A DNA stretch of 64,000 nt, taken from Bacteroidales bacterium. Lineage in GTDB: Bacteria; Bacteroidota; Bacteroidia; Bacteroidales; 4484-276. The position numbers were made by a program, and so were the translations under genes. The notes beneath the pieces were generated by a model. The model ran no database searches and was not told the origin of the DNA. It saw nothing but the letters and a program-made list of their open reading frames with translations. Positions 1,412 through 13,212 of the stretch are shown piece after piece. The stretch lies in assembly GCA_035647615.1 (NCBI GenBank), contig DASRND010000003.1:195135-259134 (forward strand). The letters are read 5' to 3'. The stretch's first letter is position 1. The number at the start of each line of letters is the position of its first letter.

Positions 1412-2125
1412 ATGATAAAGCTAAGCGTCAACATCAACAAAATCGCTACTTTGCGCAATGCCCGTGGTGGCAACATTCCCGATGTCATCAAAGCGGCCAT
1501 CGACTGTGAACGATTTGGCGCGCAGGGCATCACGGTGCACCCACGCCCCGACGAGCGGCACATCCGTTACCAGGATGTCCGCGATCTGAAGCCGTTGCTC
1601 ACCACCGAGTTCAATATCGAAGGCTATCCATCACGGGTCTTTATCGATCTTGTGCTGGAAGCTGCTCCGGCGCAGGTAACGCTGGTGCCCGATCCGCCGG
1701 ATGCCATTACCAGCAACGCCGGCTGGGACACCATTAAAAACCAAAGCTTTCTTACGGAGGTTGTTGCCGAATTTAAACGCAACGGGATTCGCACTTCGTT
1801 ATTTGTCGAAACGGATCCAAGCATAATCGAAAATGCGAAGAAAACCGGTGCCGATCGTGTGGAGTTATACACCGAGCAATATGCCACCGACTTTCCCAAA
1901 AACGCCGAAGCTGCCGTGCGACCTTTTGTTGAAGCGGCAAGGGTAGCTGCTGCAAATAGCCTGGGATTGAATGCCGGCCACGATCTGAGCCTCGACAATC
2001 TGCGTTACTTTGCCCACAGCGTGCCCGGCCTGCTCGAAGTTTCCATTGGCCATGCCCTTATTTCCGATGCGCTTTATCTGGGATTGGAAAACACCATCCA
2101 GCTTTATCTGCGGCAGTTGCGGTAG
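1412..2125 (+). CDS. pdxJ: pyridoxine 5'-phosphate synthase
   Basis: [37 protein letters not shown] and the C-terminal EVSIGHALI are classic PdxJ blocks. I prefer the ATG at 1412 over the upstream TTG at 1391. Confidence 0.9.
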
Positions 2126-2224
2126 AAGCAGGCAATTTGGTTATGAATCTTTTATGATGATTTTTTAAGAACTATACTGTTGAAAAAACCGTTAATCCTA
2201 AACAGTTAATTAAAGGAGATTGAT

Positions 2225-2443
2225 ATGAAAACGTTAACACTACAAATACCAGAAACAGTTGATGAGAATAAATTCAAGATGCACCTTGCTGCTTTTCTTT
2301 TTGAAAAAGGTATTTTATCATCAGGGCAGGCCGCTAAAGTTGCTGGCATTTCAAAAAGAGAATTTATCGAAACAATTGGTCAATACGGCGTATCAGTATT
2401 TGGAGAAACCATTGAGGATTTAGAAAAGATTGTTGATGAGTAG
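2225..2443 (+). CDS. UPF0175-family antitoxin-like protein
   Basis: A 72-aa ORF with a helix-turn-helix-like segment (LSSGQAAKVAGISKREFIETIGQYGVSVF) typical of UPF0175. Its stop overlaps the downstream PIN-like gene by 8 nt (ATGAGTAG). Confidence 0.6.
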   Translation: MKTLTLQIPETVDENKFKMHLAAFLFEKGILSSGQAAKVAGISKREFIETIGQYGVSVFGETIEDLEKIVDE

Positions 2444-2894
2444 AATTATTATTTCAGATACAAGCTGTTTAATTGCATTGGCAAAGATTGGTGAACTTGA
2501 TCTTTTAAAGGATTTATTTCATGAGATTATTATTACAAAAAGTGTTGACGAGGAATATGGAGAGCCGCTGCCTGATTGGATTTTAATAACTGATGTTAAG
2601 AATAGAAGTAAACAAATTGAGTTGGAGAAACGCCTTGATCGTGGAGAAGCCAGTTCTATTGCTTTAGCTCTTGAGATAGAAAATTCAACCTTGATAATTG
2701 ACGAAATAAAAGGTAGAAAGATTGCAGAAGCATTACAGATTGACATAATTGGAACCATTGGTATCATACTGCTTGCAAATAAGCGAGGCTTGATATCAAA
2801 TCCATTAGACTTGATTCATTTGCTGGTTAAAAATGGATTTAGAGTGTCGGATAAATTACTTAAAATGATACTCGAAAGATATGGTTCACGTTAA
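2436..2894 (+). CDS. DUF3368 / PIN-like toxin candidate
   Basis: It starts IIISDTSCLIALAKIGELDLL (beta strand followed by Asp, then helix). It continues with RLDRGEASSIALA and LIIDEIKGRKIA, the layout of DUF3368 PIN-like proteins that pair with UPF0175. Confidence 0.6.
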   Translation: MSRIIISDTSCLIALAKIGELDLLKDLFHEIIITKSVDEEYGEPLPDWILITDVKNRSKQIELEKRLDRGEASSIALALEIENSTLIIDEIKGRKIAEALQIDIIGTIGIILLANKRGLISNPLDLIHLLVKNGFRVSDKLLKMILERYGSR

Positions 2895-3119
2895 CAGCTC
2901 TCAACAGTCAACGAAATTCAGTGAAATGAAAAGCTTGTTTTCTGAAGGCTTTATTAATTTTGTAATGAGATTAATCTATGGAACAAATGAGGAATTCTGT
3001 TATGATCGAAACTTAGACGTGTAAGCGGAAGTTTTTTACCGGCTAAAACAGAAATAAACGGAATACTCACTATACACAAACGTTATGCCTCACCTTAAGA
3101 AACCAAAAAATAAATAGAG

Positions 3120-5330
3120 ATGCAAGTAGATAAAATAGCATTCGAATATGCAATCAGTAAAATTGATGACGGGAATATCTTTGAGATTTTCGGTAATGAT
3201 TTTCTATCGGCAGTATTAGGTTATTCATTTATACCTGTTGGTAGGGCTAAGGATAAAGGCGTTGACGGATTTCAGCACATATTTTCAAGGGGTGATAGCC
3301 AAAAACACATATTTCAATTATCAACCGAATTGGATCACACAAGTAAAATTTACAACACAATCAAAAAGCTTCAAAAAAATGAAATTGAGTTTGATAGAAT
3401 TGTTTATGTAACTAACAGAAAAATAAACAACGCTGAGAGTTTAATAGATGAAATCTTTGACAAGATAAAAATCCCACTAACTATTTATGACATTCGTTGG
3501 TTTTCTGCTCACAGCAACCAAAGTGAACAAACTATCAAGGCCTATCAAATTTTTGTTGACACTTATCTTCATGAGTACTTCAAACCCGGAAAACACCAAA
3601 CAGTTGCTGATTTAGATTCTGATTCTCGTTTGTTTGTTTTTTTAGGTCAACAATTTGATAGCAATAGAGATGATTTAAAACTAGATGACTTACTCGCTGA
3701 AACTTTAATATTATACGCTTTAGAAGGGACAGACCCCGACAAGCATAACTTAAAATCAGAAGTGCAGATTAAGGAATCAATTAAGAAATATTTAAAGTTT
3801 GACCCACAACTCATAGACAGTAAAATCTCAGAAAGACTGATTGCTTTAACTGTAAAACCAAGAAAAATAAAATTCCATACTAAAGAAAAGGGTTATTGTT
3901 TGCCATATGAAACAAGATTAGAAATAGGTGAAAGAAATCTAAAAGATGAAGTCTTATTCAACGTCTTTTACACTCAGACGCAAGAGACGATTAAAAAATA
4001 TTTTTCAGATGTTGAAGTTCAAGTCAAAGACGTAGAAGCCCTTATTACCAAGGTTTTTAATAAGATATTTCTAAGACAGGGTCTTGAATTTTCAAACTTT
4101 GTTCTGAAGGGTGATAGCCATTCAGTAATTGAACAGAATTTAAATGATGTTATTGGACTAGCAGTAGATGAAAGCAGCGTTATTCTTTCTAATAAAGAAA
4201 AAGTTAAAACCGCACTTCACCTTGCTATAAGAGACATTGTATATAACGGCACATCCGAACAGAGAAGATTCTTGAAGAGCCTATCTAATACTTATTTGAT
4301 GATGTTCCTACTTCAATGGGAACCAAAACTTTCAACATATTTTCAAACGCTTGCATCTCATTTAAAAGTATTCGTTGATAACTCTATTATTATCCCAGCT
4401 CTTTCAGAATACTACCTAGATGAAGGTAACAGGAGACATTGGAATCTACTAATGGGGGCAAAAAAAGCCGGTATTTCAATGTTTATAAATGAAACATTAT
4501 TGAGTGAACTAGTTTCCCATTTAAGAATGGTAAGTAGCATTTATTATAATATGTTTTACCGTATGGAAGACTTCTACCTTAATGACGAGTTTGAACTGCT
4601 TTTTATTAACGAAATTTTAATCAGGGCTTATTTCTATGCGAAGAAAAAAGGGCAGATAAAAGATTTTGATAAATTCATTGACACTTTTGTGGATTCGCAA
4701 CTCAAAACTGCTAAGGATGAATTAATCGTTTATTTAAAAGAGATTTTTGGAATAACTTTTATTTCAAATGAAATGTGGGACATAAAAGTAAATGAAGACG
4801 AAAAAGCCAAGTTGACTGAAGAGTTGAGTTATAAGAAAGACTATGATATTAAAGCCGAAAATGATGCAGAAATGATTTTGGCAATATATTACTTGCGCAA
4901 TCGAAATGGCGAATCTTGTGATAGTGGAATCTTTGGTTATAAAACTTGGTGGCTTTCCAAAGATACATCAACATACAAAGCTGTTATTAAATGTTTTGGT
5001 CCAGACAAATATCCTGTTAGTTGTTACATAAGACCCGATTTCATTTACAACTATATAGCCTTAAAACCTACAACAGAAGAAGTCAATAATGCATACAATG
5101 AAATTTTCCCTACAATGTTGGGCGTAAATCTTAGCTATCATATGCCTAAAGAAGTTTCACAGGCAGTTCAAGAAAAAATCAAAGAATATCATTCTAAACC
5201 AGCTGTAAGAGTAAAACAAACCTTGAAAACTCTTTCTGACCGATTGAAATCCGATCCGACTTTAAAAAACAGAAATTCAGTAGAACACTTTTTGGATACA
5301 GAATTAAGCAAACTACAAGACGGAGAATAG
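3120..5330 (+). CDS. large orphan cytoplasmic protein; Mrr/AIPR-like N-terminus and possible PIN-like C-terminal half (function unknown)
   Basis: An uninterrupted 736-codon ORF that is strongly AT-rich, with no signal peptide or TM segment. The N-terminus reads FEIFGNDFLSAVLGYSFIPVGRAKDKGVDGF..IFQLST. The C-terminal acidic pattern is D420, E458, D582, D615. Confidence refers to it being a real CDS, not to its function. Confidence 0.85.
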   Translation: MQVDKIAFEYAISKIDDGNIFEIFGNDFLSAVLGYSFIPVGRAKDKGVDGFQHIFSRGDSQKHIFQLSTELDHTSKIYNTIKKLQKNEIEFDRIVYVTNRKINNAESLIDEIFDKIKIPLTIYDIRWFSAHSNQSEQTIKAYQIFVDTYLHEYFKPGKHQTVADLDSDSRLFVFLGQQFDSNRDDLKLDDLLAETLILYALEGTDPDKHNLKSEVQIKESIKKYLKFDPQLIDSKISERLIALTVKPRKIKFHTKEKGYCLPYETRLEIGERNLKDEVLFNVFYTQTQETIKKYFSDVEVQVKDVEALITKVFNKIFLRQGLEFSNFVLKGDSHSVIEQNLNDVIGLAVDESSVILSNKEKVKTALHLAIRDIVYNGTSEQRRFLKSLSNTYLMMFLLQWEPKLSTYFQTLASHLKVFVDNSIIIPALSEYYLDEGNRRHWNLLMGAKKAGISMFINETLLSELVSHLRMVSSIYYNMFYRMEDFYLNDEFELLFINEILIRAYFYAKKKGQIKDFDKFIDTFVDSQLKTAKDELIVYLKEIFGITFISNEMWDIKVNEDEKAKLTEELSYKKDYDIKAENDAEMILAIYYLRNRNGESCDSGIFGYKTWWLSKDTSTYKAVIKCFGPDKYPVSCYIRPDFIYNYIALKPTTEEVNNAYNEIFPTMLGVNLSYHMPKEVSQAVQEKIKEYHSKPAVRVKQTLKTLSDRLKSDPTLKNRNSVEHFLDTELSKLQDGE

Positions 5331-5425
5331 AAAGGCTAGGCATAGCTACCAACTGTTACCACACTTTCAGAAAAACACATTTGTTCTAAAATACTCCTTC
5401 TGTCAATTTGGATGTCCTTTGAAAC

Positions 5426-5734
5426 TCACTCCATCAGTAGCGTATCTTCTTCTTTATTAATCACTTCTCCAATCATGGCAGCATGAGGATAACCTTCCTG
5501 ATGTAATGCTTCTGGCGCAACATCCACCTTTTCCGGTGCCACGCACATCAACAGGCCGCCGGAAGTTTGTGCATCGAAAAACAACATTTCGTGGTTGTAA
5601 TCGATGGAAGCATTGAAGTGGCAATGGCTGCCGGCAAATTCCTTGTTGCGGAAAGCGGCGCCGGGAATTACACCCATTTCTATCAAATTCAGCACTTCAC
5701 CGAATACGGGTAATTTGTTGGTGTCGAAACGCAT
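5426..5734 (-). pseudogene. selD: selenide,water dikinase (SelD) C-terminal remnant
   Basis: LPVFGEVLNLIEMGVIPGAAFRNKEF..FDAQTSGGLLMCV..AMIGEV matches the last ~100 aa of SelD. The upstream in-frame sequence hits a stop at 5783-5785, exactly where the neighbouring T9SS gene ends, so the N-terminal two thirds is absent. Confidence 0.7.
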
Positions 5735-5782: not shown

Positions 5783-7957
5783 TCACATTTTGATTATTCT
5801 TCCAATGGCAACGGTTTCTCCGCTGTTAATTTTTAAAAGATAAATACCTTTTTTCAATGAACCCATTTCTATGCAGTGATGGTTTTCAAAAGGAGAATGC
5901 AGGATCGAGCGATATACCACCTCACCGGTAAGGTTTATGAGTTCCACGGTTTGCAAGCCGGATTTACTTTCGATGTACAATTTATCACGCACTGGATTGG
6001 GAAATGCTTTAACATCCAAATTTTCTAGCTCAAATACGCTACTCACCACCGTAACCTGAACAGAGTCGCTGTGCGAACAAACACCATGATTCACCTGCAC
6101 CCAGATGTTCCATTCGCCAGGTCCCAATTCCCCACCGATAATCCGGATCGCATTGGATGTGTCGCCGGTTGACCAGAGGTAGTGTTCATAAATATCCGGC
6201 AGCGTCAGGGTAAGCGTATCGTGAAGTGCAATGGCCGTGTCGGCTCCCAGGTCGATTGTAAATCCCGGCTGGATGTCGATGGTTATGGTATCGTATTGCC
6301 AGCATCCGTAATCGTCAGCAGCCGAAAGTGTATAGGTGCCAGGCTCCGTAACGCTATACCAGCTTTTATCGGATAGCTCGTTATTCCAATAGTAATATGC
6401 ATATCCTTCCGGCCCATTCAAAATTGTGCTGTCGCAAACGGTTTCATCCGGGCCAAAGCTAAACTGCGCGGGTGGATGCCGTTGCATTTTCAGCAGCAAG
6501 CCGTCCGCTATCCATCCCATATAGGAATGAAGGGTGTCGTTTTCAAGTTTTAATGTACCCTCGAAATTTGCCGAAAACAGGATTTGTTTACAATTATCCA
6601 ACATGAAATTTTCAGGCTGCAGAGACCTTGAACTATAGGGAATATAAAAATTGCTAATCTCTCCTTGAGGCGAAATCTGTCCAAACGCTGTGCGGGGATA
6701 AGCATACACCATGGTAGTATCGAAAATTGTGACAGTACCTTGCATCCCACATGCGAAGTACAAGGTATCCTCGTAAGCGTCCAGAGAGAAATACACATAT
6801 CCATAAAAAGGAATGTACCACAACGACTCCCAATTTTCGTTAAACATAGTCAGGATAGTCTGTGGGTTATTTTCGTCATAGAAAAGCGTATCATTACCAA
6901 TAATCATGGTATCTCTCACAGCTGCTGAGAAATAGAATTGACCCTTTTCATCGATAACTAAATCTCTCATTATCATTTTCCATTCGAATATTTTCCCTGT
7001 ATGCGTGTAACCGGCTGAATCGAATGTAAGTACGAATGAACGGTCTTTAACAAATCCTTGTCCGGGATCGGGATGCATAATGGTGTCATTTGAAATAATG
7101 AGATTTGTTCTGGTTCTTCCATACACTACAAACCTGTCGCCATCTACCGAAATAAAATTTCTCTTATCCACATTAAGGTATCTATCGCTATCCATTGCTA
7201 CCGAATCATTCTTTTGATTATTTGTGTAAGAATCGCCGTAAAATGATTCCCTCCAAATGAGGTCTCCCGTGGTTTTGTCCATTTTGAGAATGGACGATAA
7301 AACCGTATTGGAAGAGATTACCGAATCCTGTCCAAAATATCGCACGGTATCGGTTTCGTAAGCCCACGATGTATGGGTGGTGTTTAGATAAAGATATCCG
7401 TCGTTGCCTACATACATTCCGGCGCACAAGTCATCGGTATTACCGGAAATGAGTTTGATGTATTCAATATTTAAATCAGAAGAAAGTTTGATTATTGCGA
7501 GATCCCGCCTGTGAAATACGAGCGGCCCGGTTTCTTCATCCCGAATTACACTATCCTGAATGCTCATCCAGTTAGCGAATGGACAGGCGAGATAGATATT
7601 ATTGTCGCGATCGGTTGTCATTGCCGGATCAATCCAATAGAAACTGGCCGAATCTGTAAACAGGTCAAGCGCAAACAAACAATTCCCATCGGGGTCGAAT
7701 TTGGCAATGGCTGCATTGTGCGCAATATTTCCGGCGGAAGGGTGCGCAAATAAGGTGTCGGGCAAGAAAATGGAATCCTGATAATTGACATTTACAAAAA
7801 CATTATTGTAAAAATCGGTGTGAAGAATTTCTGTCTCACTGCGATCCCCTTTTTGAGTAAAGGACACATTCCACAGAGGCTCGAAACTTTGGGCACAGAG
7901 GTTAACCTGGAAGCTAATCGTTAAAAGAAGCAAAGGTAAGATAAAATACTTTTTCAT
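5783..7957 (-). CDS. secreted protein with T9SS C-terminal sorting domain, function unknown
   Basis: Start taken at MKKYFILPLLLLTISFQVNLCAQ (signal peptide, ATG 7957) rather than the ORF-track start at 8080. The C-terminus FPNPVRDKLYIE..KKGIYLLKINSGE..RIIKM is a T9SS CTD. Confidence 0.75.
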   Translation of the reverse strand: MKKYFILPLLLLTISFQVNLCAQSFEPLWNVSFTQKGDRSETEILHTDFYNNVFVNVNYQDSIFLPDTLFAHPSAGNIAHNAAIAKFDPDGNCLFALDLFTDSASFYWIDPAMTTDRDNNIYLACPFANWMSIQDSVIRDEETGPLVFHRRDLAIIKLSSDLNIEYIKLISGNTDDLCAGMYVGNDGYLYLNTTHTSWAYETDTVRYFGQDSVISSNTVLSSILKMDKTTGDLIWRESFYGDSYTNNQKNDSVAMDSDRYLNVDKRNFISVDGDRFVVYGRTRTNLIISNDTIMHPDPGQGFVKDRSFVLTFDSAGYTHTGKIFEWKMIMRDLVIDEKGQFYFSAAVRDTMIIGNDTLFYDENNPQTILTMFNENWESLWYIPFYGYVYFSLDAYEDTLYFACGMQGTVTIFDTTMVYAYPRTAFGQISPQGEISNFYIPYSSRSLQPENFMLDNCKQILFSANFEGTLKLENDTLHSYMGWIADGLLLKMQRHPPAQFSFGPDETVCDSTILNGPEGYAYYYWNNELSDKSWYSVTEPGTYTLSAADDYGCWQYDTITIDIQPGFTIDLGADTAIALHDTLTLTLPDIYEHYLWSTGDTSNAIRIIGGELGPGEWNIWVQVNHGVCSHSDSVQVTVVSSVFELENLDVKAFPNPVRDKLYIESKSGLQTVELINLTGEVVYRSILHSPFENHHCIEMGSLKKGIYLLKINSGETVAIGRIIKM

Positions 7958-8263
7958 GATTTTGAAATTTTTGGGTTGACTATTCAAAATATTAATAATT
8001 AACTCATCCACAAAATACCCGGAAAACACTTCACCCGACTTGTCCAATAAATCATAAGCTACTGAAAACATGCTGCTCATGATTTTCTGTTTTTTATTTG
8101 GACACTACCAATACTTTCATTTCGCCACGGGAACTATAATACATCATAAACTATTTTAGGTGTTGTTCTGCGTATTGTAAAAAATAACAACGAGGCCATC
8201 ATGTAATAAATTGTTTGTAATTTCACCTCTCGTTTTTTAATCATTCATTAACACCAATGCTAT

Positions 8264-10210
8264 ATGAAAAAGTATTTATCCATTTTCGTTCTTTTCCTTT
8301 TTGCAGCCCCGCTCCTCTGGGCTCAATATTCTTCTAATCCCGCTGAAAACCTTCGCTTGAGCACTACTGCCGGCGAGCAGGCATTGCCCAAGGCGGCTGT
8401 GTGCCCCGACGGCAGCATGTATGTTTCCTGGTTTTCGTCGGAAGACGGTAATTACAACGTGCGCTTACAACTACTTGATGCCAACGGAAATCAATTGTGG
8501 GCCTCGGGCGGATTGCTCGTTAGCGACCAGCCACAGATGACGTGGCTCACCGACTATTCGCTTACTGCCGATCAGGCGGGCTATGCCGTGGTAGTATTTC
8601 AGGATGTTCGTAATACCAACAACAACGTGGTGGCTTACCGTGTGTCGCCGGCGGGCGAAATGATGTGGGGCGACGACGGCCTGATGCTTTCTGACAGCGA
8701 TGCATTCGACGTAAACCCGCAAGTGTGCGCCACCGAAGCCGGTAATATTGTATTTGCCTGGCCAAGTCAGGGCGCCACCAATGTGGTGATGATGCAAAAA
8801 GTTTCGCCAGCGGGCGATTTGCTCTGGGGCGATGGCATCACGCTGACAGCCACCGGAATTTCCTATACTTTTCCGTTTTTGCATCCTGCCGATGGCGACC
8901 ATGTATTCCTGATCTGGCACAAAGAAACAGGTCCCTTCTGGGCGGCCAACCGTGGACTCTATGCACAAAAGCTCAACACCGACGGCTCTTTTATGTGGCC
9001 CGATGATGTGGAAGTTTTCCCACCGATAGGATCCGGCGCCGTAATCACACTCGATTTTTGTCCGGATGACGCCGGCGGCATTGTTTTTACCAAATACGGC
9101 AACGACCAAGGGACGCATTTCAACTGCTGGGTGCAGCATATCACGGCTGCCGGCACGCTCACCATGCCCGTCGACAACTATGTTTCCACTTCCATGGACA
9201 GACTGCACATGTATCCCTCTCCGGCTTTTTTGCCACAGACGCAGGAAGTGATTTTCTATTTCATTGAACAGGATCTCAACCAAAACCAGCGTGGCCTGTA
9301 TGCCCAAAAATTCGATCTGCAGGGCATCCGCCAATGGACTGACGAAGGAAAGATGCTTTTGCCGCTGTCTGACAACGACTACTCCTTGCCAATGGCTTCC
9401 AGCTATCAGGACAAAGCGATCTGCGTTTACGGCGCTGCCGTTTTTGGAAATTCCCTCGACGAAAAAGTGCAGGCGGTGATGCTTCACAGCGATGGCTCGT
9501 ATGTGTGGAATGATCATTTTATAGATATGTGCACGGTACAAAGTGGCAAATCACACGCGGTACTTTCGACCATGCACAACAACCAATGGGTGGCTGTGTG
9601 GGAAGAAAGCCGTGGCGGAAATACCGACATTTATGCACAGAACATCCATCCCGACGGCGCGCTCGGCATCGTTGGCACAATGGGAAAAATTCAGGGCTTT
9701 GTGCGGGATGCAGCTACCAACATTGCTATTACCGAAGCTACCATTACTGCCGTTAATGCCGACGATGAAACCATTACCATTGCTACTCCGTTTGGCGCTC
9801 ATTACAGCATGATGCTCACGGAAGCTGTTTACGATCTTACCTGTGAAGCTGATGGCTATCTTACCACGGCCGCTGAGAATATTATTGTGGAAGAAGGGTC
9901 GAATGTCAACCACGATTTTTATCTGCAACCGCTAACAGAACTTACAGGTTTGAGGTCGGATGCCAAAATAAAAGTACAATGGTTTCCCAACCCATTCGGT
10001 AATATGCTAACTTTGCAGGTGCCTGATGATGTAGTTGGAAGTTGTTCTGTAACCATAAGCGATGCTTTTGGCCGCACGGTTTACGCAACCACAGTTGTTG
10101 ATGCATCAGGCGCATTTGTGATTGACACACGAACTTTTGGTTCAGGACTTTATTTTTATACTATACAAACACAACTACAAACAAATCACGGTTTATTAAT
10201 CAAAAACTAA
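8264..10210 (+). CDS. secreted protein with CarboxypepD_reg-like domain and T9SS C-terminal sorting domain
   Basis: Signal peptide MKKYLSIFVLFLFAAPLLWAQ. A repetitive G/W/D-rich body is followed by GKIQGFVRDAATNIAITEATITAV (carboxypeptidase regulatory-like). The CTD reads WFPNPFGNMLTLQV..GLYFYTIQT. Confidence 0.75.
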   Translation: MKKYLSIFVLFLFAAPLLWAQYSSNPAENLRLSTTAGEQALPKAAVCPDGSMYVSWFSSEDGNYNVRLQLLDANGNQLWASGGLLVSDQPQMTWLTDYSLTADQAGYAVVVFQDVRNTNNNVVAYRVSPAGEMMWGDDGLMLSDSDAFDVNPQVCATEAGNIVFAWPSQGATNVVMMQKVSPAGDLLWGDGITLTATGISYTFPFLHPADGDHVFLIWHKETGPFWAANRGLYAQKLNTDGSFMWPDDVEVFPPIGSGAVITLDFCPDDAGGIVFTKYGNDQGTHFNCWVQHITAAGTLTMPVDNYVSTSMDRLHMYPSPAFLPQTQEVIFYFIEQDLNQNQRGLYAQKFDLQGIRQWTDEGKMLLPLSDNDYSLPMASSYQDKAICVYGAAVFGNSLDEKVQAVMLHSDGSYVWNDHFIDMCTVQSGKSHAVLSTMHNNQWVAVWEESRGGNTDIYAQNIHPDGALGIVGTMGKIQGFVRDAATNIAITEATITAVNADDETITIATPFGAHYSMMLTEAVYDLTCEADGYLTTAAENIIVEEGSNVNHDFYLQPLTELTGLRSDAKIKVQWFPNPFGNMLTLQVPDDVVGSCSVTISDAFGRTVYATTVVDASGAFVIDTRTFGSGLYFYTIQTQLQTNHGLLIKN

Positions 10211-10215
10211 CTAAA

Positions 10216-13212
10216 ATGAACAAAAAGTACTTAATTTTCATGGTTTTGCTGATGGGATTTGTGCCCTTTGTTGTGGCGCAAAATTATTGGCTTCAAAAGA
10301 CAATCAACGATCCGCAAACGGGTCGAAGTATCGAAACCACCACTACCACGGTTCCTCCCGGAATGCCCGACGGAAAACTTATGGGCGATCCTTCAATGGC
10401 GCCGGGAATCAACTGGCAGTTTACTGATCCGGCAGGCATCGGGTCGCGCGTTGTGGTAGACGATGAGCAGGGGTTCACCTTCAATTCGTGGTGGCTCAAC
10501 AACGAACGTGTTTCGCTGTGGGATGATTCCAATGTACCCTTATGGGAAATGCCTGTTCCCACCGAATGGGAATATCCTATCGACATGACCTCCGATGGTA
10601 TGTTTGTCAATGTTGCTTTCGACAACTCCGTGTACATTTACAATACCGCTACACAAGCGCTGGTGTGGGAGCTGACAATACCTGGACAAGCTGTGGCAAC
10701 CTTCCTGAGCGAAGATGGAGCTATGCTTTATGTGCTGGAAAACGAAGGTGACGCCAAATGTCTGGCTTCAGCTTATGAGGTTGGCAACACCACTCCATTG
10801 TGGCAAACAGGTTTTATTAGTTCAGCTACCATTGCCGCTGCTTCCGGCGACCGTTCCAGATTGGCAGTATGTCAGTATTCCGGTGCCAATAAGCTATGGG
10901 TCATTGATACAGAAACTGGAGAAGTGATTTTTGATGCTGGATATAAAAATCAAAACCCGCCTGCTTTTAGTTATGATGGTAACATCCTGCTCAACGGCGA
11001 CTACAGTGGCTATGCCTATTTGTACAAATACAACGAAGAGCTTAATACCTATGAAGAGCAATGGTATTTTAAAGTAGGTGGCGGTGGAAGCTCGGCATGG
11101 GTTGTAGGTATGGCCGTTTCGGCTGACGGCACCACGGCAGCCATTGGCACCCTGGTGTTTTTGTCGGGAGGTTCTGATGGTGAGATTTATCTCTTCGATA
11201 CCTATTCGCCGGTGCCTCGCTGGGTGTATGGCAATTGCGGTGACGAGATTGCGGCTGTTAGCCTTTCCGACGACGGCGCTATGCTGGCTGCTGCCGGTTA
11301 CGGTCCCCTTGACCAATCCAAACCCGATGCTTATATCTTCCGTAGAGAATCCAATGAGCCCATCTTCACGCTTACCACGCCTGGTTCCTTCTTCGACGTG
11401 GATATGTCGGGCGATGGCATGATGTGCAGCGCGACGGGCAAAGCAGTCCATGCGGGTCAGATGGGTAGCGGCGGATTGCTTTATAACCTCAACACCAATC
11501 CAGGCGGCGGCGCTCTTGCCGGCTCAATTAATGAGGATTTGGCTAAAATTGAAATCGAAGGAATCGACGATTATTATAACTACAGCGAAAATGGTGAATA
11601 TCTCATCAGATTTATCCCTGCCGGTACTTACACCGTACGTGCTTCCAAAGTTGGATTTTATCCGGTAACGGTCGAAAATGTCGTTATCACCGAAGGCGGA
11701 CAAGCCAATCTCGATTTTACGCTCGAAGCTACCGGCGATGCCCCTTATCATTTGATGGCTACACAGGGTGCCGCACTTTCTGTTGATCTTTGGTGGGATT
11801 ATGATAATCCTTCAAATATTGAGGGTTTTAATATTTATCGCAAAACCATTGAGTTGGCGCAATTTCCCGAAGAACCCATTGCTACTGTTGGTAACACCGC
11901 ACTGGAGTTTTCCGACACAGAAGCGCTTCCACTCACCACGTATTATTATGCCGTTACGGCCAAATTCTCAGGTGATGTTCAGTCGCCTTATTCTGAGGTG
12001 GCCGAAGGTTTCACAGCAACAGGTTTTGTAATTGATAATATCTCTGTTTATGTAGGTTCCACTCCGGTGATTGACGGAACGATATCGGAAGGCGAATGGG
12101 ACGACGCTTTTGTAATGGATGCCTCCGATTTCCTGGGCATCAACGACAACACGCCCAATCCGGTGGGAAGCGTGACGATGTATTACAAAATGAACGAAGC
12201 CATGACTGAACTTTACGTAGCCTGTATCAACACCAACGATACGGTGCTCGAAGATCACGATGAGGTGGCTTTGTATATCGACGATAACAATGACGGCGTT
12301 TATCCTGCTCCCGGCGACAACTCCGAGGGAAACTATTGGGCTGTTTATTATGCTGCCGGAAACGAGATACGCTATCGCCCTATTTACAATACTGGTGGGG
12401 TAGGAGACGTGGTGCTGCTCGAAAATCCACAGATTGAAGTATCAATTGCTACGGGTGTGGTGGTGTATGAATTTATGATTCCGATTGGCGATGATGCCGA
12501 CTGGAAGATTAGTCCCAACGAAGACAACCAAAGCGGGCTATTTTTATTTGTGCTTGACGATCCAATCGAAAAAGACGGATATTGGCCTGCCGAAAATTTG
12601 CAAGTTTTTGATCCTGTCGGTTATGGCACCATCACTTTCGGTGCTGAAGATCTGATGCCTGAGCCGCCACAAAATGGTTTCATCTGGTGGGATCGCGCTG
12701 AGGCGCCGATCACCGTTTTGCTCTCCTGGGATTATCCCGAAATGAACGACTTCGATCATTTTAATGTATTCATCCATCGCGATGGCAACTCCGAGCTGGT
12801 GGCAGAAACCATCGGTTCGCAACTGGTATATGTTACCGACAACAACGATTATGCAACCTTCACGGTAACCACTGTGGATCAAGCGCAAAATGAGTCGGAA
12901 GAGTCGGAGCCGCTGATTTTTGATGTTACCGTCGGCATCAGCCAGCCGGAGCTGGAAATACAAGCGCAGGTTTATCCCAATCCTTCGTCCGGAGAGGTTA
13001 CGGTTGCTTTCGCAACAGCTTTTGCTACCCGTTGCAACATCGAAGTACTGGCTCCCAACGGAACACTTCTGGAGGTGGTTTTTGATGGCGTTTTAGATAC
13101 CGGAAAACAACAAATTAGCTGGCAGCCGAAGGAAGCAGCTCCGGGCATCTATTTCATGCGCATCCGCACCGCTGAAAGCACCATCATCCGGAAAATACTG
13201 ATGATGCCGTAA
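10216..13212 (+). CDS. secreted multi-domain protein (propeller-like repeats, CarboxypepD_reg-like, FN3-like, CBM9-like) with T9SS C-terminal sorting domain
   Basis: It starts 5 nt after the previous stop, so it is probably co-transcribed. It has a signal peptide, an IDGTISEGEWDDAF block (CBM9-like) and the CTD VYPNPSSGEVTVAF..GIYFMRIRT. Confidence 0.75.
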   Translation: MNKKYLIFMVLLMGFVPFVVAQNYWLQKTINDPQTGRSIETTTTTVPPGMPDGKLMGDPSMAPGINWQFTDPAGIGSRVVVDDEQGFTFNSWWLNNERVSLWDDSNVPLWEMPVPTEWEYPIDMTSDGMFVNVAFDNSVYIYNTATQALVWELTIPGQAVATFLSEDGAMLYVLENEGDAKCLASAYEVGNTTPLWQTGFISSATIAAASGDRSRLAVCQYSGANKLWVIDTETGEVIFDAGYKNQNPPAFSYDGNILLNGDYSGYAYLYKYNEELNTYEEQWYFKVGGGGSSAWVVGMAVSADGTTAAIGTLVFLSGGSDGEIYLFDTYSPVPRWVYGNCGDEIAAVSLSDDGAMLAAAGYGPLDQSKPDAYIFRRESNEPIFTLTTPGSFFDVDMSGDGMMCSATGKAVHAGQMGSGGLLYNLNTNPGGGALAGSINEDLAKIEIEGIDDYYNYSENGEYLIRFIPAGTYTVRASKVGFYPVTVENVVITEGGQANLDFTLEATGDAPYHLMATQGAALSVDLWWDYDNPSNIEGFNIYRKTIELAQFPEEPIATVGNTALEFSDTEALPLTTYYYAVTAKFSGDVQSPYSEVAEGFTATGFVIDNISVYVGSTPVIDGTISEGEWDDAFVMDASDFLGINDNTPNPVGSVTMYYKMNEAMTELYVACINTNDTVLEDHDEVALYIDDNNDGVYPAPGDNSEGNYWAVYYAAGNEIRYRPIYNTGGVGDVVLLENPQIEVSIATGVVVYEFMIPIGDDADWKISPNEDNQSGLFLFVLDDPIEKDGYWPAENLQVFDPVGYGTITFGAEDLMPEPPQNGFIWWDRAEAPITVLLSWDYPEMNDFDHFNVFIHRDGNSELVAETIGSQLVYVTDNNDYATFTVTTVDQAQNESEESEPLIFDVTVGISQPELEIQAQVYPNPSSGEVTVAFATAFATRCNIEVLAPNGTLLEVVFDGVLDTGKQQISWQPKEAAPGIYFMRIRTAESTIIRKILMMP

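Follow-up and report, generated by a model that had tools for sequence, protein, structure and literature searches.

The stretch of DNA considered here is a 64,000-nt segment of contig DASRND010000003.1 (assembly GCA_035647615.1, positions 195,135 to 259,134 of the forward strand) from a Bacteroidales bacterium. The whole segment is called the window below, and coordinates are positions in the window unless another locus is named. The window contains a low-GC islet (GC content about 0.33 versus 0.46-0.50 in the flanks), which is bounded by pdxJ and by a fragment of an AIRS_C domain gene and harbors a toxin-antitoxin (TA) pair followed by an open reading frame (ORF) for a protein of 736 amino acids (aa) (Table 1). 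This protein is a member of a large family that is unannotated and has spread horizontally. Its N-terminal domain has the fold of Mrr/MspJI-type PD-(D/E)xK restriction endonucleases, residues ~415-650 are plausibly PIN-like, and in the Bacteroidota-centred clade of the window copy the gene is a single-gene integron-type cassette with its own attC site, found in co-oriented arrays. A preliminary description of this DNA, made from the sequence alone, had already pointed out that the ORF has no transmembrane segment and that a TA-type pair lies directly upstream. Both statements hold: the maximal 19-residue Kyte-Doolittle mean of the protein is 1.27, and Pfam and PADLOC identify the pair as a UPF0175-family antitoxin and a DUF3368/PIN-type toxin. 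A Walker A motif is not present in the 736-aa protein.

Table 1. Features of the islet, the cassette remnant and the 736-aa protein in the window.
Feature	Position	Strand	Evidence or remark
pdxJ	1412-2125		left border of the islet
Low-GC islet	2190-5420		contains TA pair and 736-aa gene
Possible cassette-leader/R'-like half-site CGTTAATCCTAAAC	2190-2203	+	ahead of the TA pair; tentative
UPF0175-family antitoxin	2225-2443	+	PF03683, E=4e-15; PADLOC PDC-S70; neighbor, not a conserved partner
DUF3368/PIN-type toxin	2436-2894	+	PF11848, E=7.7e-10; PIN-TPR-GreABC, E=1.3e-5; PADLOC PDC-S70, E=3e-38
Left arm, GTTRRRY-type core half-site GTTATGCCTCACC	3082-3094	+	5' cassette boundary; conserved in relatives
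A-rich cassette leader TTAAGAAACCAAAAAATAAATAGAG	3095-3119	+	conserved between half-site and ATG; similar leader starts other array cassettes
736-aa ORF	3120-5330	+	member of a large unannotated family
Mrr/MspJI-type PD-(D/E)xK restriction-endonuclease-fold domain, residues 1-165	3120-3614	+	Foldseek (PDB, BFVD), Pfam hits, residue statistics
Loop, residues 42-59	3243-3296	+	GxxKDKGVDG; D45, G47, D49
Helical region, residues 166-404, probable winged helix	3615-4331	+	secondary structure of the model; motifs LEGTDP, CLPYETR
Probable PIN-like α/β domain, residues 405-650, with helical insert ~490-543	4332-5069	+	Pfam, BFVD, model, residue statistics
C-terminal helical region, residues 651-736	5070-5327	+	conserved P664, G668, R697
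Right arm, decayed inverse-core site GGCTAGGCATAGC	5334-5346	+	A-to-G change in AAC
102-aa ORF, AIRS_C fragment	5426-5734	-	right border of the islet

Contrary to the earlier view of the 736-aa protein as an orphan, a word-indexed search retrieved more than 460 relatives, and an exhaustive search of 1.84 billion cluster representatives retrieved 781 at E ≤ 1e-3, a figure that is counted in clusters of 50% identity and is a lower bound on the size of the family. The relatives are nearly all 725-770 aa long (about 735) and align end to end. They are found in Bacteroidota, Acidobacteriota, several classes of Proteobacteria, Chloroflexota, Verrucomicrobiota, Chlamydiota, Nitrospirota, Actinomycetota, and others. 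Wherever the sources name them, these proteins bear the name 'hypothetical protein', and the query had no above-threshold match in Pfam, PADLOC, NCBIfam, PHROGs, or the PDB sequences; profiles of the entire protein and of its single domains retrieved nothing but noise from the PDB sequences. The ratio of nonsynonymous to synonymous substitutions (dN/dS) is 0.02-0.03 against the closest relatives with synonymous sites (dS) being saturated, which indicates that the protein is functional and tightly constrained.

An enterobacterial homolog, WP_016156503.1, shares 24% identity with the query over 96% of its length and is encoded on eight plasmids of Escherichia, Klebsiella, and Citrobacter. It is present in 5 of 5426 complete E. 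coli genomes and is plasmid-borne every time. No member of the family was found in 50,697 phage genomes, and one contig of the 2.9 million in IMG/VR carries a family member.

The structure of the 736-aa protein was modeled by AlphaFold with a diverse alignment of 53 sequences (mean predicted local distance difference test score (pLDDT) 82.1, predicted template modeling score (pTM) 0.70). A first model, based on 28 close relatives (pLDDT 69.8, pTM 0.37), had been uninformative in the fold search and was replaced by this one. In Foldseek searches, residues ~1-165 match the restriction endonucleases EcoT38I, MspJI, FokI, and BamHI with probabilities of 0.96-1.00 over ~165 columns. The E-values of these N-terminal matches are 0.02-0.6, none being below 1e-3, because a domain of 165 residues was searched inside a multi-domain query of 736 residues. 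In the viral structure library BFVD, the same residues match phage restriction endonucleases and an Mrr-like protein. Pfam scans of this domain in 54 members yielded matches to Mrr_cat in nine (best E-value 2.9e-5), SMEK_N in seven, and AIPR_N in six; other Pfam families were almost all matched in one or two members only. For the isolated domain of the query, AIPR_N is matched by residues 67-126 with E=0.0016 and 18.9 bits at a cut-off of 28. The Pfam gathering score is not reached by the N-terminal domain of the query or of any scanned member, and the AIPR core domain had no match in any scan. SMEK is the Mrr-like effector nuclease of short prokaryotic Argonaute (pAgo) defense systems, and its closest characterized enzyme is AspBHI (bioRxiv 10.1101/2023.06.08.544223; PMC10810196), which agrees with the MspJI-family fold matches of the N-terminal domain.

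The active-site motifs of this domain were followed in 331 unique family members. D45 and K76 are found in all 331, Q66 in 330, and D49 in 328, and E22 is Glu in 325, the other six having alignment gaps at this position. The family shares with the Mrr/MspJI-AspBHI-type domains, including SMEK and AIPR_N, the PD-(D/E)xK fold as well as the helix-borne Glu, the GxxDxGxDG loop, and the Gln on the β-strand, and the weak but recurrent profile matches concern variants that act as effectors in defense systems. The Mrr/AIPR-like N-terminus of the preliminary description is corroborated by the structure searches in both libraries, by the recurrent Mrr_cat, SMEK_N, and AIPR_N matches, and by the near-invariance of the motif. 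It had also been noticed that the lysine of (Q/E)-x-K is missing from the query. Since 329 of the 331 members have Ser or Thr at the respective position, S68, this is a trait of the whole family, in which E, D, and Q of the catalytic constellation E...D...(E/Q)-x-K are kept and K is absent. In contrast to the Mrr-type enzymes, the family has an invariant lysine eight residues later, and this K76, located on the following helix, could replace the canonical one. A further difference from Mrr, MspJI, SMEK-APAZ, and AIPR proteins is that ~570 additional residues of the family have no counterpart in them.

In the region following the nuclease-like domain, the model has helices at residues 188-242 and then a β-hairpin at residues 251-260, an order of elements that probably represents a winged helix. 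L201, T204, and R266 are invariant in this middle region, and no consistent Pfam family was found for residues 166-404. From residue ~415 to ~650, the AlphaFold model has the element order β-α-α-β-α, a helical insert, and β-α-α-β-α-β-α, which would fit a PIN fold interrupted after α3 by an insert. Scans of residues 405-650 in 57 members gave PIN-clan matches to PIN_12 in six (best E-value 6.9e-4), PIN in two, PIN_3 in one, and DUF4411 in one; all of these stay below threshold and lie only in this region. In one member, residues ~419-475 map to positions 3-56 of the 172 positions of PIN_12, with β1-α3 in register with the start of the model. BFVD contributes a structure match to a viral 'PIN like domain' protein with a probability of 0.84 over 236 columns. 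On these grounds a PIN-like identity of residues ~415-650 is plausible. The likeness to PIN nucleases (VapC-type; PIN_12, PIN, PIN_3, DUF4411) extends to the β-α-α-β-α...β-α-β-α order and to the placement of acidic residues, which follow β1 and β4 and lie within α3 and where α5 begins. The family differs from them by an insert of ~55-80 residues after α3, and, unlike the PIN toxins of ~140 aa that are encoded with an antitoxin, this domain is part of a protein of 736 aa.

The acidic residues are where the PIN-like C-terminal half proposed at the outset needs revision. Of the four residues put forward as PIN-like, D582 (308/331, 93%) and the residue at position 615 (D or E in 317/331, 96%) are conserved, whereas E458 is variable across the family and D420 is Asp in only 120 of the 331 members. 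Asp is found at position 422 in a further ~100, and neither position is acidic in ~105 (~32%), so that the family has the first Asp in about two thirds of its members, at either of two positions, and the set of four conserved acidic residues of PIN domains (D, E, D, D) is incomplete at its first place. Conserved instead are E463 (327/331) and E430, which is invariant and might compensate for the variable first Asp. The invariant residues E430 and R593 are additions of the family to the PIN pattern, and W610 and W611 are kept in 329 and 325 members, respectively. The conservation of E430, E463, R593, W610, W611, D582, and D/E615 makes a second functional acidic site (E430, E463, D582, D/E615) likely, whatever the exact fold is. 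With regard to the fold itself, the sub-threshold PIN hits, the BFVD match, and the order of elements speak for the earlier proposal, and the variability of the first Asp and a negative profile comparison, given below, speak against it.

With two candidate centers in one chain, it has to be asked whether both are active. The protein might be a restriction enzyme of the modification-dependent, type IV-like kind, with the Mrr/MspJI-type site as its sole catalytic center and with winged-helix and PIN-like parts that serve only to bind or recognize modified DNA, the PIN-like part being catalytically dead in at least some clades. The prominence of MspJI and EcoT38I among the structural matches, the frequency of Mrr_cat, which is the most frequent Pfam match, the stricter conservation of the N-terminal residues compared to the first PIN Asp, and the restriction-modification (R-M) systems adjoining the gene in some genomes would all suit such an enzyme. 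However, the canonical lysine has given way to Ser/Thr across the family, modified-base readers (SRA, YTH, EVE, or similar) were not detected in the Pfam scans, and E430, E463, D582, D/E615, and R593 are as conserved as the N-terminal site, which points to a second functional center. We therefore regard a purely type IV-like enzyme as unlikely.

The mobility of the gene, on which the preliminary description was silent, can be read from its non-coding borders. In the relatives, a block ~40-20 bp before the ATG is conserved despite saturated synonymous sites and begins with (C)GTT, and a complementary block ending with AAC lies after the stop codon. These arms differ between clades and are complementary within a locus (GTTATGCCTAACC/GGCTAGGCATAAC, GTTGGCTGTAACC/GGCTACAGCCAAC, GTTGCCCACAATA/TACTGTGGGCAAC, GTTACAAGCAACCC/GGGCAGCTTGTAAC). 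Behind the right arm, many loci have ~120-140 nt that can be folded as a long imperfect hairpin ending with ...AAAAC/GTT, and after the G/TT of this hairpin an apparently different cassette starts with a similar leader. Arms and hairpin together have the anatomy of an attC site, in which the inverse core RYYYAAC and the core GTTRRRY enclose an imperfect palindrome; among the sites, AAC is invariant and GTT nearly so.

In ten hand-picked sites, R-box, L-box, and inner stem are paired at 71.8% of the positions, compared to 57% in shuffled sequences (reached by 0 of 500 shuffles) and 37-44% with slid partners; the structure was derived from the same ten sequences on which it was tested, which somewhat favors it. 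Compensatory changes on both sides were observed for 21 of 27 pairs. A covariance model built from the hand-picked sites matched 58 places in the 1.52 Mb of family loci, all of them on the strand of the gene and in arrays, and 2 places in a control consisting of 0.53 Mb of contigs that are unrelated but come from related organisms. The two control matches indicate that attC-like sites of this type occur sparsely across related environmental genomes; they lie in 2 of 80 contigs with pdxJ homologs (locus L098, 1547-1678, E=8e-8; locus L112, 7668-7769, minus strand, E=0.002). A hand-written attC rule demanding perfect 9-bp stems had mostly returned simple palindromes and was replaced by the covariance model, and a generic scan for inverted repeats of 13-mers was only weakly above controls.

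Each array site starts a few bases after an ORF on the same strand, and in 11 loci a site starts 7-34 nt after the stop codon of the family gene. Locus L025 contains six sites, at 6585, 7383, 8428, and 9783 before the gene and at 12215 and 14496 after it, and locus L065 contains nine. Another array, inserted among housekeeping genes, comprises three co-oriented cassettes encoding an AbiJ-type abortive-infection protein, an AHSA1 protein, and the family protein; the product of its first cassette (L178, 8173-9114, identical to L032) combines AbiJ_NTD3 and Abi_C domains. If recombination takes place at G/TT, the R'' of a cassette should match the half-site upstream of its own gene. This was found at 7 of 7 positions in eight of ten loci and at 6 of 7 in the other two, whereas the R' that closes the same attC at its far end, and belongs to the next cassette, matched at 3-7 of 7 (median 4).

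The covarying inverted repeats that bracket the ORF, and the many metagenome contigs consisting only of the family gene and about 100 bp, could in principle also mean that the repeats are the terminal inverted repeats of a one-gene transposon with a nuclease-type transposase. We consider this hardly credible, since an attC site split into R' and R'', with its ~130-nt hairpin ending in G/TT after the right arm, accounts for the repeats in full, since the same type of site follows unrelated ORFs of the arrays, all co-oriented, and since DDE and HUH transposases have a different fold. The gene was a single copy wherever copies could be counted and no target-site duplications were noticed, neither of which was looked at systematically.

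The arrays have further features of their own. No integrase (tyrosine recombinase) was found within ±10 kb of the array loci examined, and the arrays may for this reason be CALIN-like (clusters of attC sites lacking integron integrases) or parts of long chromosomal integrons; a 341-aa ORF that had been considered as an integrase candidate is a sensor protein. The leader shared by cassettes after G/TT reads approximately GTT-N(6-9)-AACC(C)TAAAA(G/A)ACCGAC (L017, 1569-1740; L032, 12203-12370; upstream of the gene in L023, L025, L026, and L038). Its conservation exceeds that of the 7-bp R' box of classical attC sites and may reflect a signal for expression or recombination. In a Tenuifilum metagenome-assembled genome (L001, 12212-12262), a perfect, terminator-like 11-bp hairpin (GTCGAGTAGGC...GCCTACTCGAC) lies right after the stop codon in place of right arm and attC, which is another way of cassette fixation. 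The copies in contigs binned as 'Bacteroidetes bacterium HGW-12' (L012) and 'Thermoflexibacter sp.' (L017) are 94% identical in protein and ~84% identical in DNA to the window gene, and closely similar attC sites follow both; either the same cassette lineage was transferred, or short contigs were mis-binned.

Outside the clade of the query, one locus with an attC-like site after the gene was found, belonging to a Wenzhouxiangella gammaproteobacterium. In the other lineages, the gene has either left the cassette vehicle or never used it. Integron cassettes are documented reservoirs of phage-defense systems and TA modules, which they commonly encode (bioRxiv 10.1101/2024.07.02.601719; 10.64898/2026.03.17.712381 and the Science and Nature Microbiology papers from 2025 cited there). 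The family cassette resembles the defense cassettes of mobile integrons (BRiCs, integron cassettes for bacteriophage resistance) and of sedentary chromosomal integrons in being a single, compact, apparently promoter-less unit that is bounded by G/TT and attC and resides in co-oriented arrays alongside TA and Abi cassettes. It differs from them by its unusual length of 2.27 kb, by its occurrence in Bacteroidota-type genomes in CALIN-like surroundings, and by the unusually conserved leader after G/TT.

In the window, the remnants of this architecture are still recognizable. The two arms are complementary at 11 of 13 positions. The R'' 7-mer reads GCATAGC here (5340-5346) and GCATAAC in the closest relative, and 6 of its 7 positions in the window agree with the upstream half-site. 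The attC body found behind the right arm of relatives is missing, the DNA homology to the closest relatives being confined to 3077-5344. With filters switched off, the covariance model found no attC in the window, neither between the TA pair and the gene nor after the gene, and the spacer at 2885-3092 does not fold better than shuffled sequences. The window gene is such a cassette, which has become fixed in the low-GC islet beside the TA module and the attC site of which has decayed. Sharp borders of DNA homology had also been considered as a sign of mobility, a point that was dropped because neutral flanks are unrecognizable anyway at saturated dS. A search for the empty site via pdxJ-containing metagenome contigs gave no close relative with the flanks of the window.

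The preliminary description had further linked the 736-aa protein to the TA pair. This link is not sustained: no such pair lies beside members elsewhere, and the DNA homology begins only at 3077, downstream of the pair, for which reason the pair does not form a unit with the gene. Antitoxin and toxin genes overlap by 8 bp, with the toxin ATG at 2436 and the antitoxin stop codon at 2441-2443, and they constitute the PADLOC candidate system PDC-S70. The DUF3368/PIN toxin family is very common, with 1683 homologs. The sequence CGTTAATCCTAAAC ahead of the pair resembles the (aaaa)C/GTT-N-AACCCTAAA leader of cassette starts in relatives, and the pair itself may tentatively be regarded as a decayed cassette, too, so that the islet would consist of two decayed cassettes between pdxJ and the AIRS_C fragment. 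A GTTAAC at 2890-2895 overlaps the stop codon of the toxin gene. At the right edge of the islet, the 102-aa ORF looks like what is left of a longer, truncated gene: its match to the AIRS_C domain (SelD/PurM/ThiL-type) is confined to the final ~50 positions, and the next gene begins 48 bp further on. Right of the islet, at 5783-13212, ORFs of 765 (minus strand), 648 (plus strand), and 998 aa (plus strand) follow, the translations of which give the impression of N-terminal signal-like segments and C-terminal ends resembling sorting signals of the type IX secretion system.

When four genes on each side were clustered for about 60 loci, no recurrent neighbor or partner of the family gene was found. 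Upstream ORFs of ~145 aa, which occur in several loci as well as on the E. coli plasmids, show no relationship with each other. The 150 genes within ±2 positions of members have matches including type IV and type IIG restriction enzymes, PglX, DpdF, PsyrT, and pAgo as well as SIR2 proteins, PbeA, HEPN proteins, Schlafen-type helicases, and integrases. One copy is located directly 3' of a type I R-M operon and has a gene for a NERD protein in its vicinity, another one in the cargo of an integrative and conjugative element (ICE) adjoining an AlbA_2 ATPase; a third adjoins a PLD-helicase-DUF3427 protein and a fourth HigBA. On enterobacterial plasmids (L092, E. coli G3/10 plasmid pSYM5/6, 9434-15196; L093, Klebsiella pM63-1), the homolog is always found between the same upstream gene for a 146-aa hypothetical protein and a convergent downstream gene for a 'TrlF family AAA-like ATPase'. 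Insertion sequence elements, TA genes, and a gene for a RES-domain protein surround this locus, which may be a small plasmid-borne defense islet.

The gene resides in arrays of cassettes, on plasmids, and next to TA modules, where stabilizing functions are common, as would also be expected of a selfish nuclease of the stabilizing, addiction, or exclusion type that keeps its array, plasmid, or island and has no role against phages. Very strong purifying selection would not contradict this, and plasmid carriage as such requires no anti-phage role. Such a nuclease is nevertheless quite unlikely here: a conserved cognate antitoxin or immunity partner does not exist, a lone 736-aa nuclease without inhibitor would hardly be an addiction module, and many of the neighbors are bona fide defense genes.

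PD-(D/E)xK and PIN folds are both frequent in DNA repair and RNA metabolism, and an accessory repair or RNA-processing enzyme that has no part in conflicts and is only incidentally mobile could account for the strong purifying selection, the constant length, and the copies located among housekeeping genes. It accords poorly with the distribution of the family, for which just 168 matching stretches in at least 79 distinct loci were found in 185,579 species genomes, scattered across many phyla in a phylum-hopping manner. Moreover, the contexts of the gene differ even between close relatives, and carriage by cassettes, plasmids, and ICEs is the pattern of an accessory conflict gene. An accessory role of this kind is very improbable.

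The reading we prefer is that the 736-aa protein is a one-protein effector of anti-phage or anti-plasmid defense composed of the Mrr-type, middle, and PIN-like parts described above, to which we assign a probability of roughly one half. According to this proposal, it would be a soluble, stand-alone, multi-domain enzyme acting on nucleic acids. Its head would have the Mrr/MspJI-type fold with a complete set of E22, D45, D49, and Q66 and with K76 as stand-in lysine, and would be followed by a helical, probably winged-helix, DNA-binding middle. Middle and PIN-like parts would recognize foreign nucleic acid or be activated by it, upon which one or both nuclease sites would cut DNA and/or RNA, the outcome being either direct, restriction-like action or an abortive-infection response. 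The support for the earlier suggestion of a single-gene defense candidate comes from context only, namely the stand-alone nature of the gene, the defense genes in its neighborhood, and its carriage as a cassette in attC arrays. A more specific version, in which a one-protein immune system has two nuclease-fold centers, a relocated-lysine Mrr site and a PIN-like site with a variable first acid, and has spread as an unusually large integron cassette by way of attC arrays in Bacteroidota and, beyond integrons, via plasmids and defense islands of many phyla, is offered only tentatively.

Several observations weigh against the proposed defense effector. In addition to the Ser/Thr at the canonical lysine position and the variability of the first PIN Asp, the loop comprising residues 42-59, with the invariant D45 and the near-invariant G47 and D49, is the best-conserved loop in the protein and the least confident segment, with pLDDT values below 50 in both AlphaFold runs. 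None of the PIN matches reaches the Pfam threshold, and an hhalign comparison of the PIN-like region with the family of the neighboring DUF3368 PIN toxin gave a probability of 0.2%, which, owing to the low diversity of the reference, is not decisive. PADLOC-DB v2 contains no family matching the 736-aa protein at E ≤ 1. Purifying selection is very strong over the entire length of the protein, which is unusual for fast-evolving sensor domains. The association with defense genes is semi-quantitative and has no matched control, and several copies are lone insertions among housekeeping genes without defense neighbors. Finally, the arrays examined have no integrase in their vicinity, and the status as a cassette is limited to the Bacteroidota-centred clade of the query and the one gammaproteobacterium.

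Among known defense systems, the Avs/AVAST-type STAND proteins (signal transduction ATPases with numerous domains) follow the same plan as the family, being large single polypeptides with an N-terminal Mrr/REase-like effector followed by helical regions and being encoded in defense islands. Avs4 and DSR2 were obtained only as whole-chain Foldseek matches of very low probability. In contrast to the Avs/AVAST proteins, the family has neither a Walker A motif nor a STAND or AAA Pfam match nor a repeat-type sensor domain, and it offers a PIN-like domain as a second catalytic candidate.

Neither the folds nor the concept of a defense cassette with a single nuclease gene is new in kind. The family itself, its architecture, the altered Mrr-type site, and its carriage by attC arrays of the Bacteroidota type appear to be undescribed in the libraries and the literature searched. 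An unannotated family of at least 781 clusters with a fixed architecture of about 735 aa has thereby received its first testable description in terms of domains and conserved sites. It represents a well-defined and readily testable candidate defense gene, the defense function of which we infer, and the natural homolog on plasmids of E. coli, Klebsiella, and Citrobacter makes testing possible at once. The cassette architecture accounts for the movement of the gene, and a covariance model for this family of attC sites now exists. It also extends the concept of integrons as defense-gene banks, known from Vibrio and from mobile integrons, to CALIN-like arrays of Bacteroidota-type genomes. If the protein is a defense system, it would represent a new single-gene architecture with an Mrr-like and a PIN-like domain in one chain; and if an immune protein with two nuclease centers is the true reading, the family would be a new defense family and integron-type arrays outside the Proteobacteria would be banks of defense genes.

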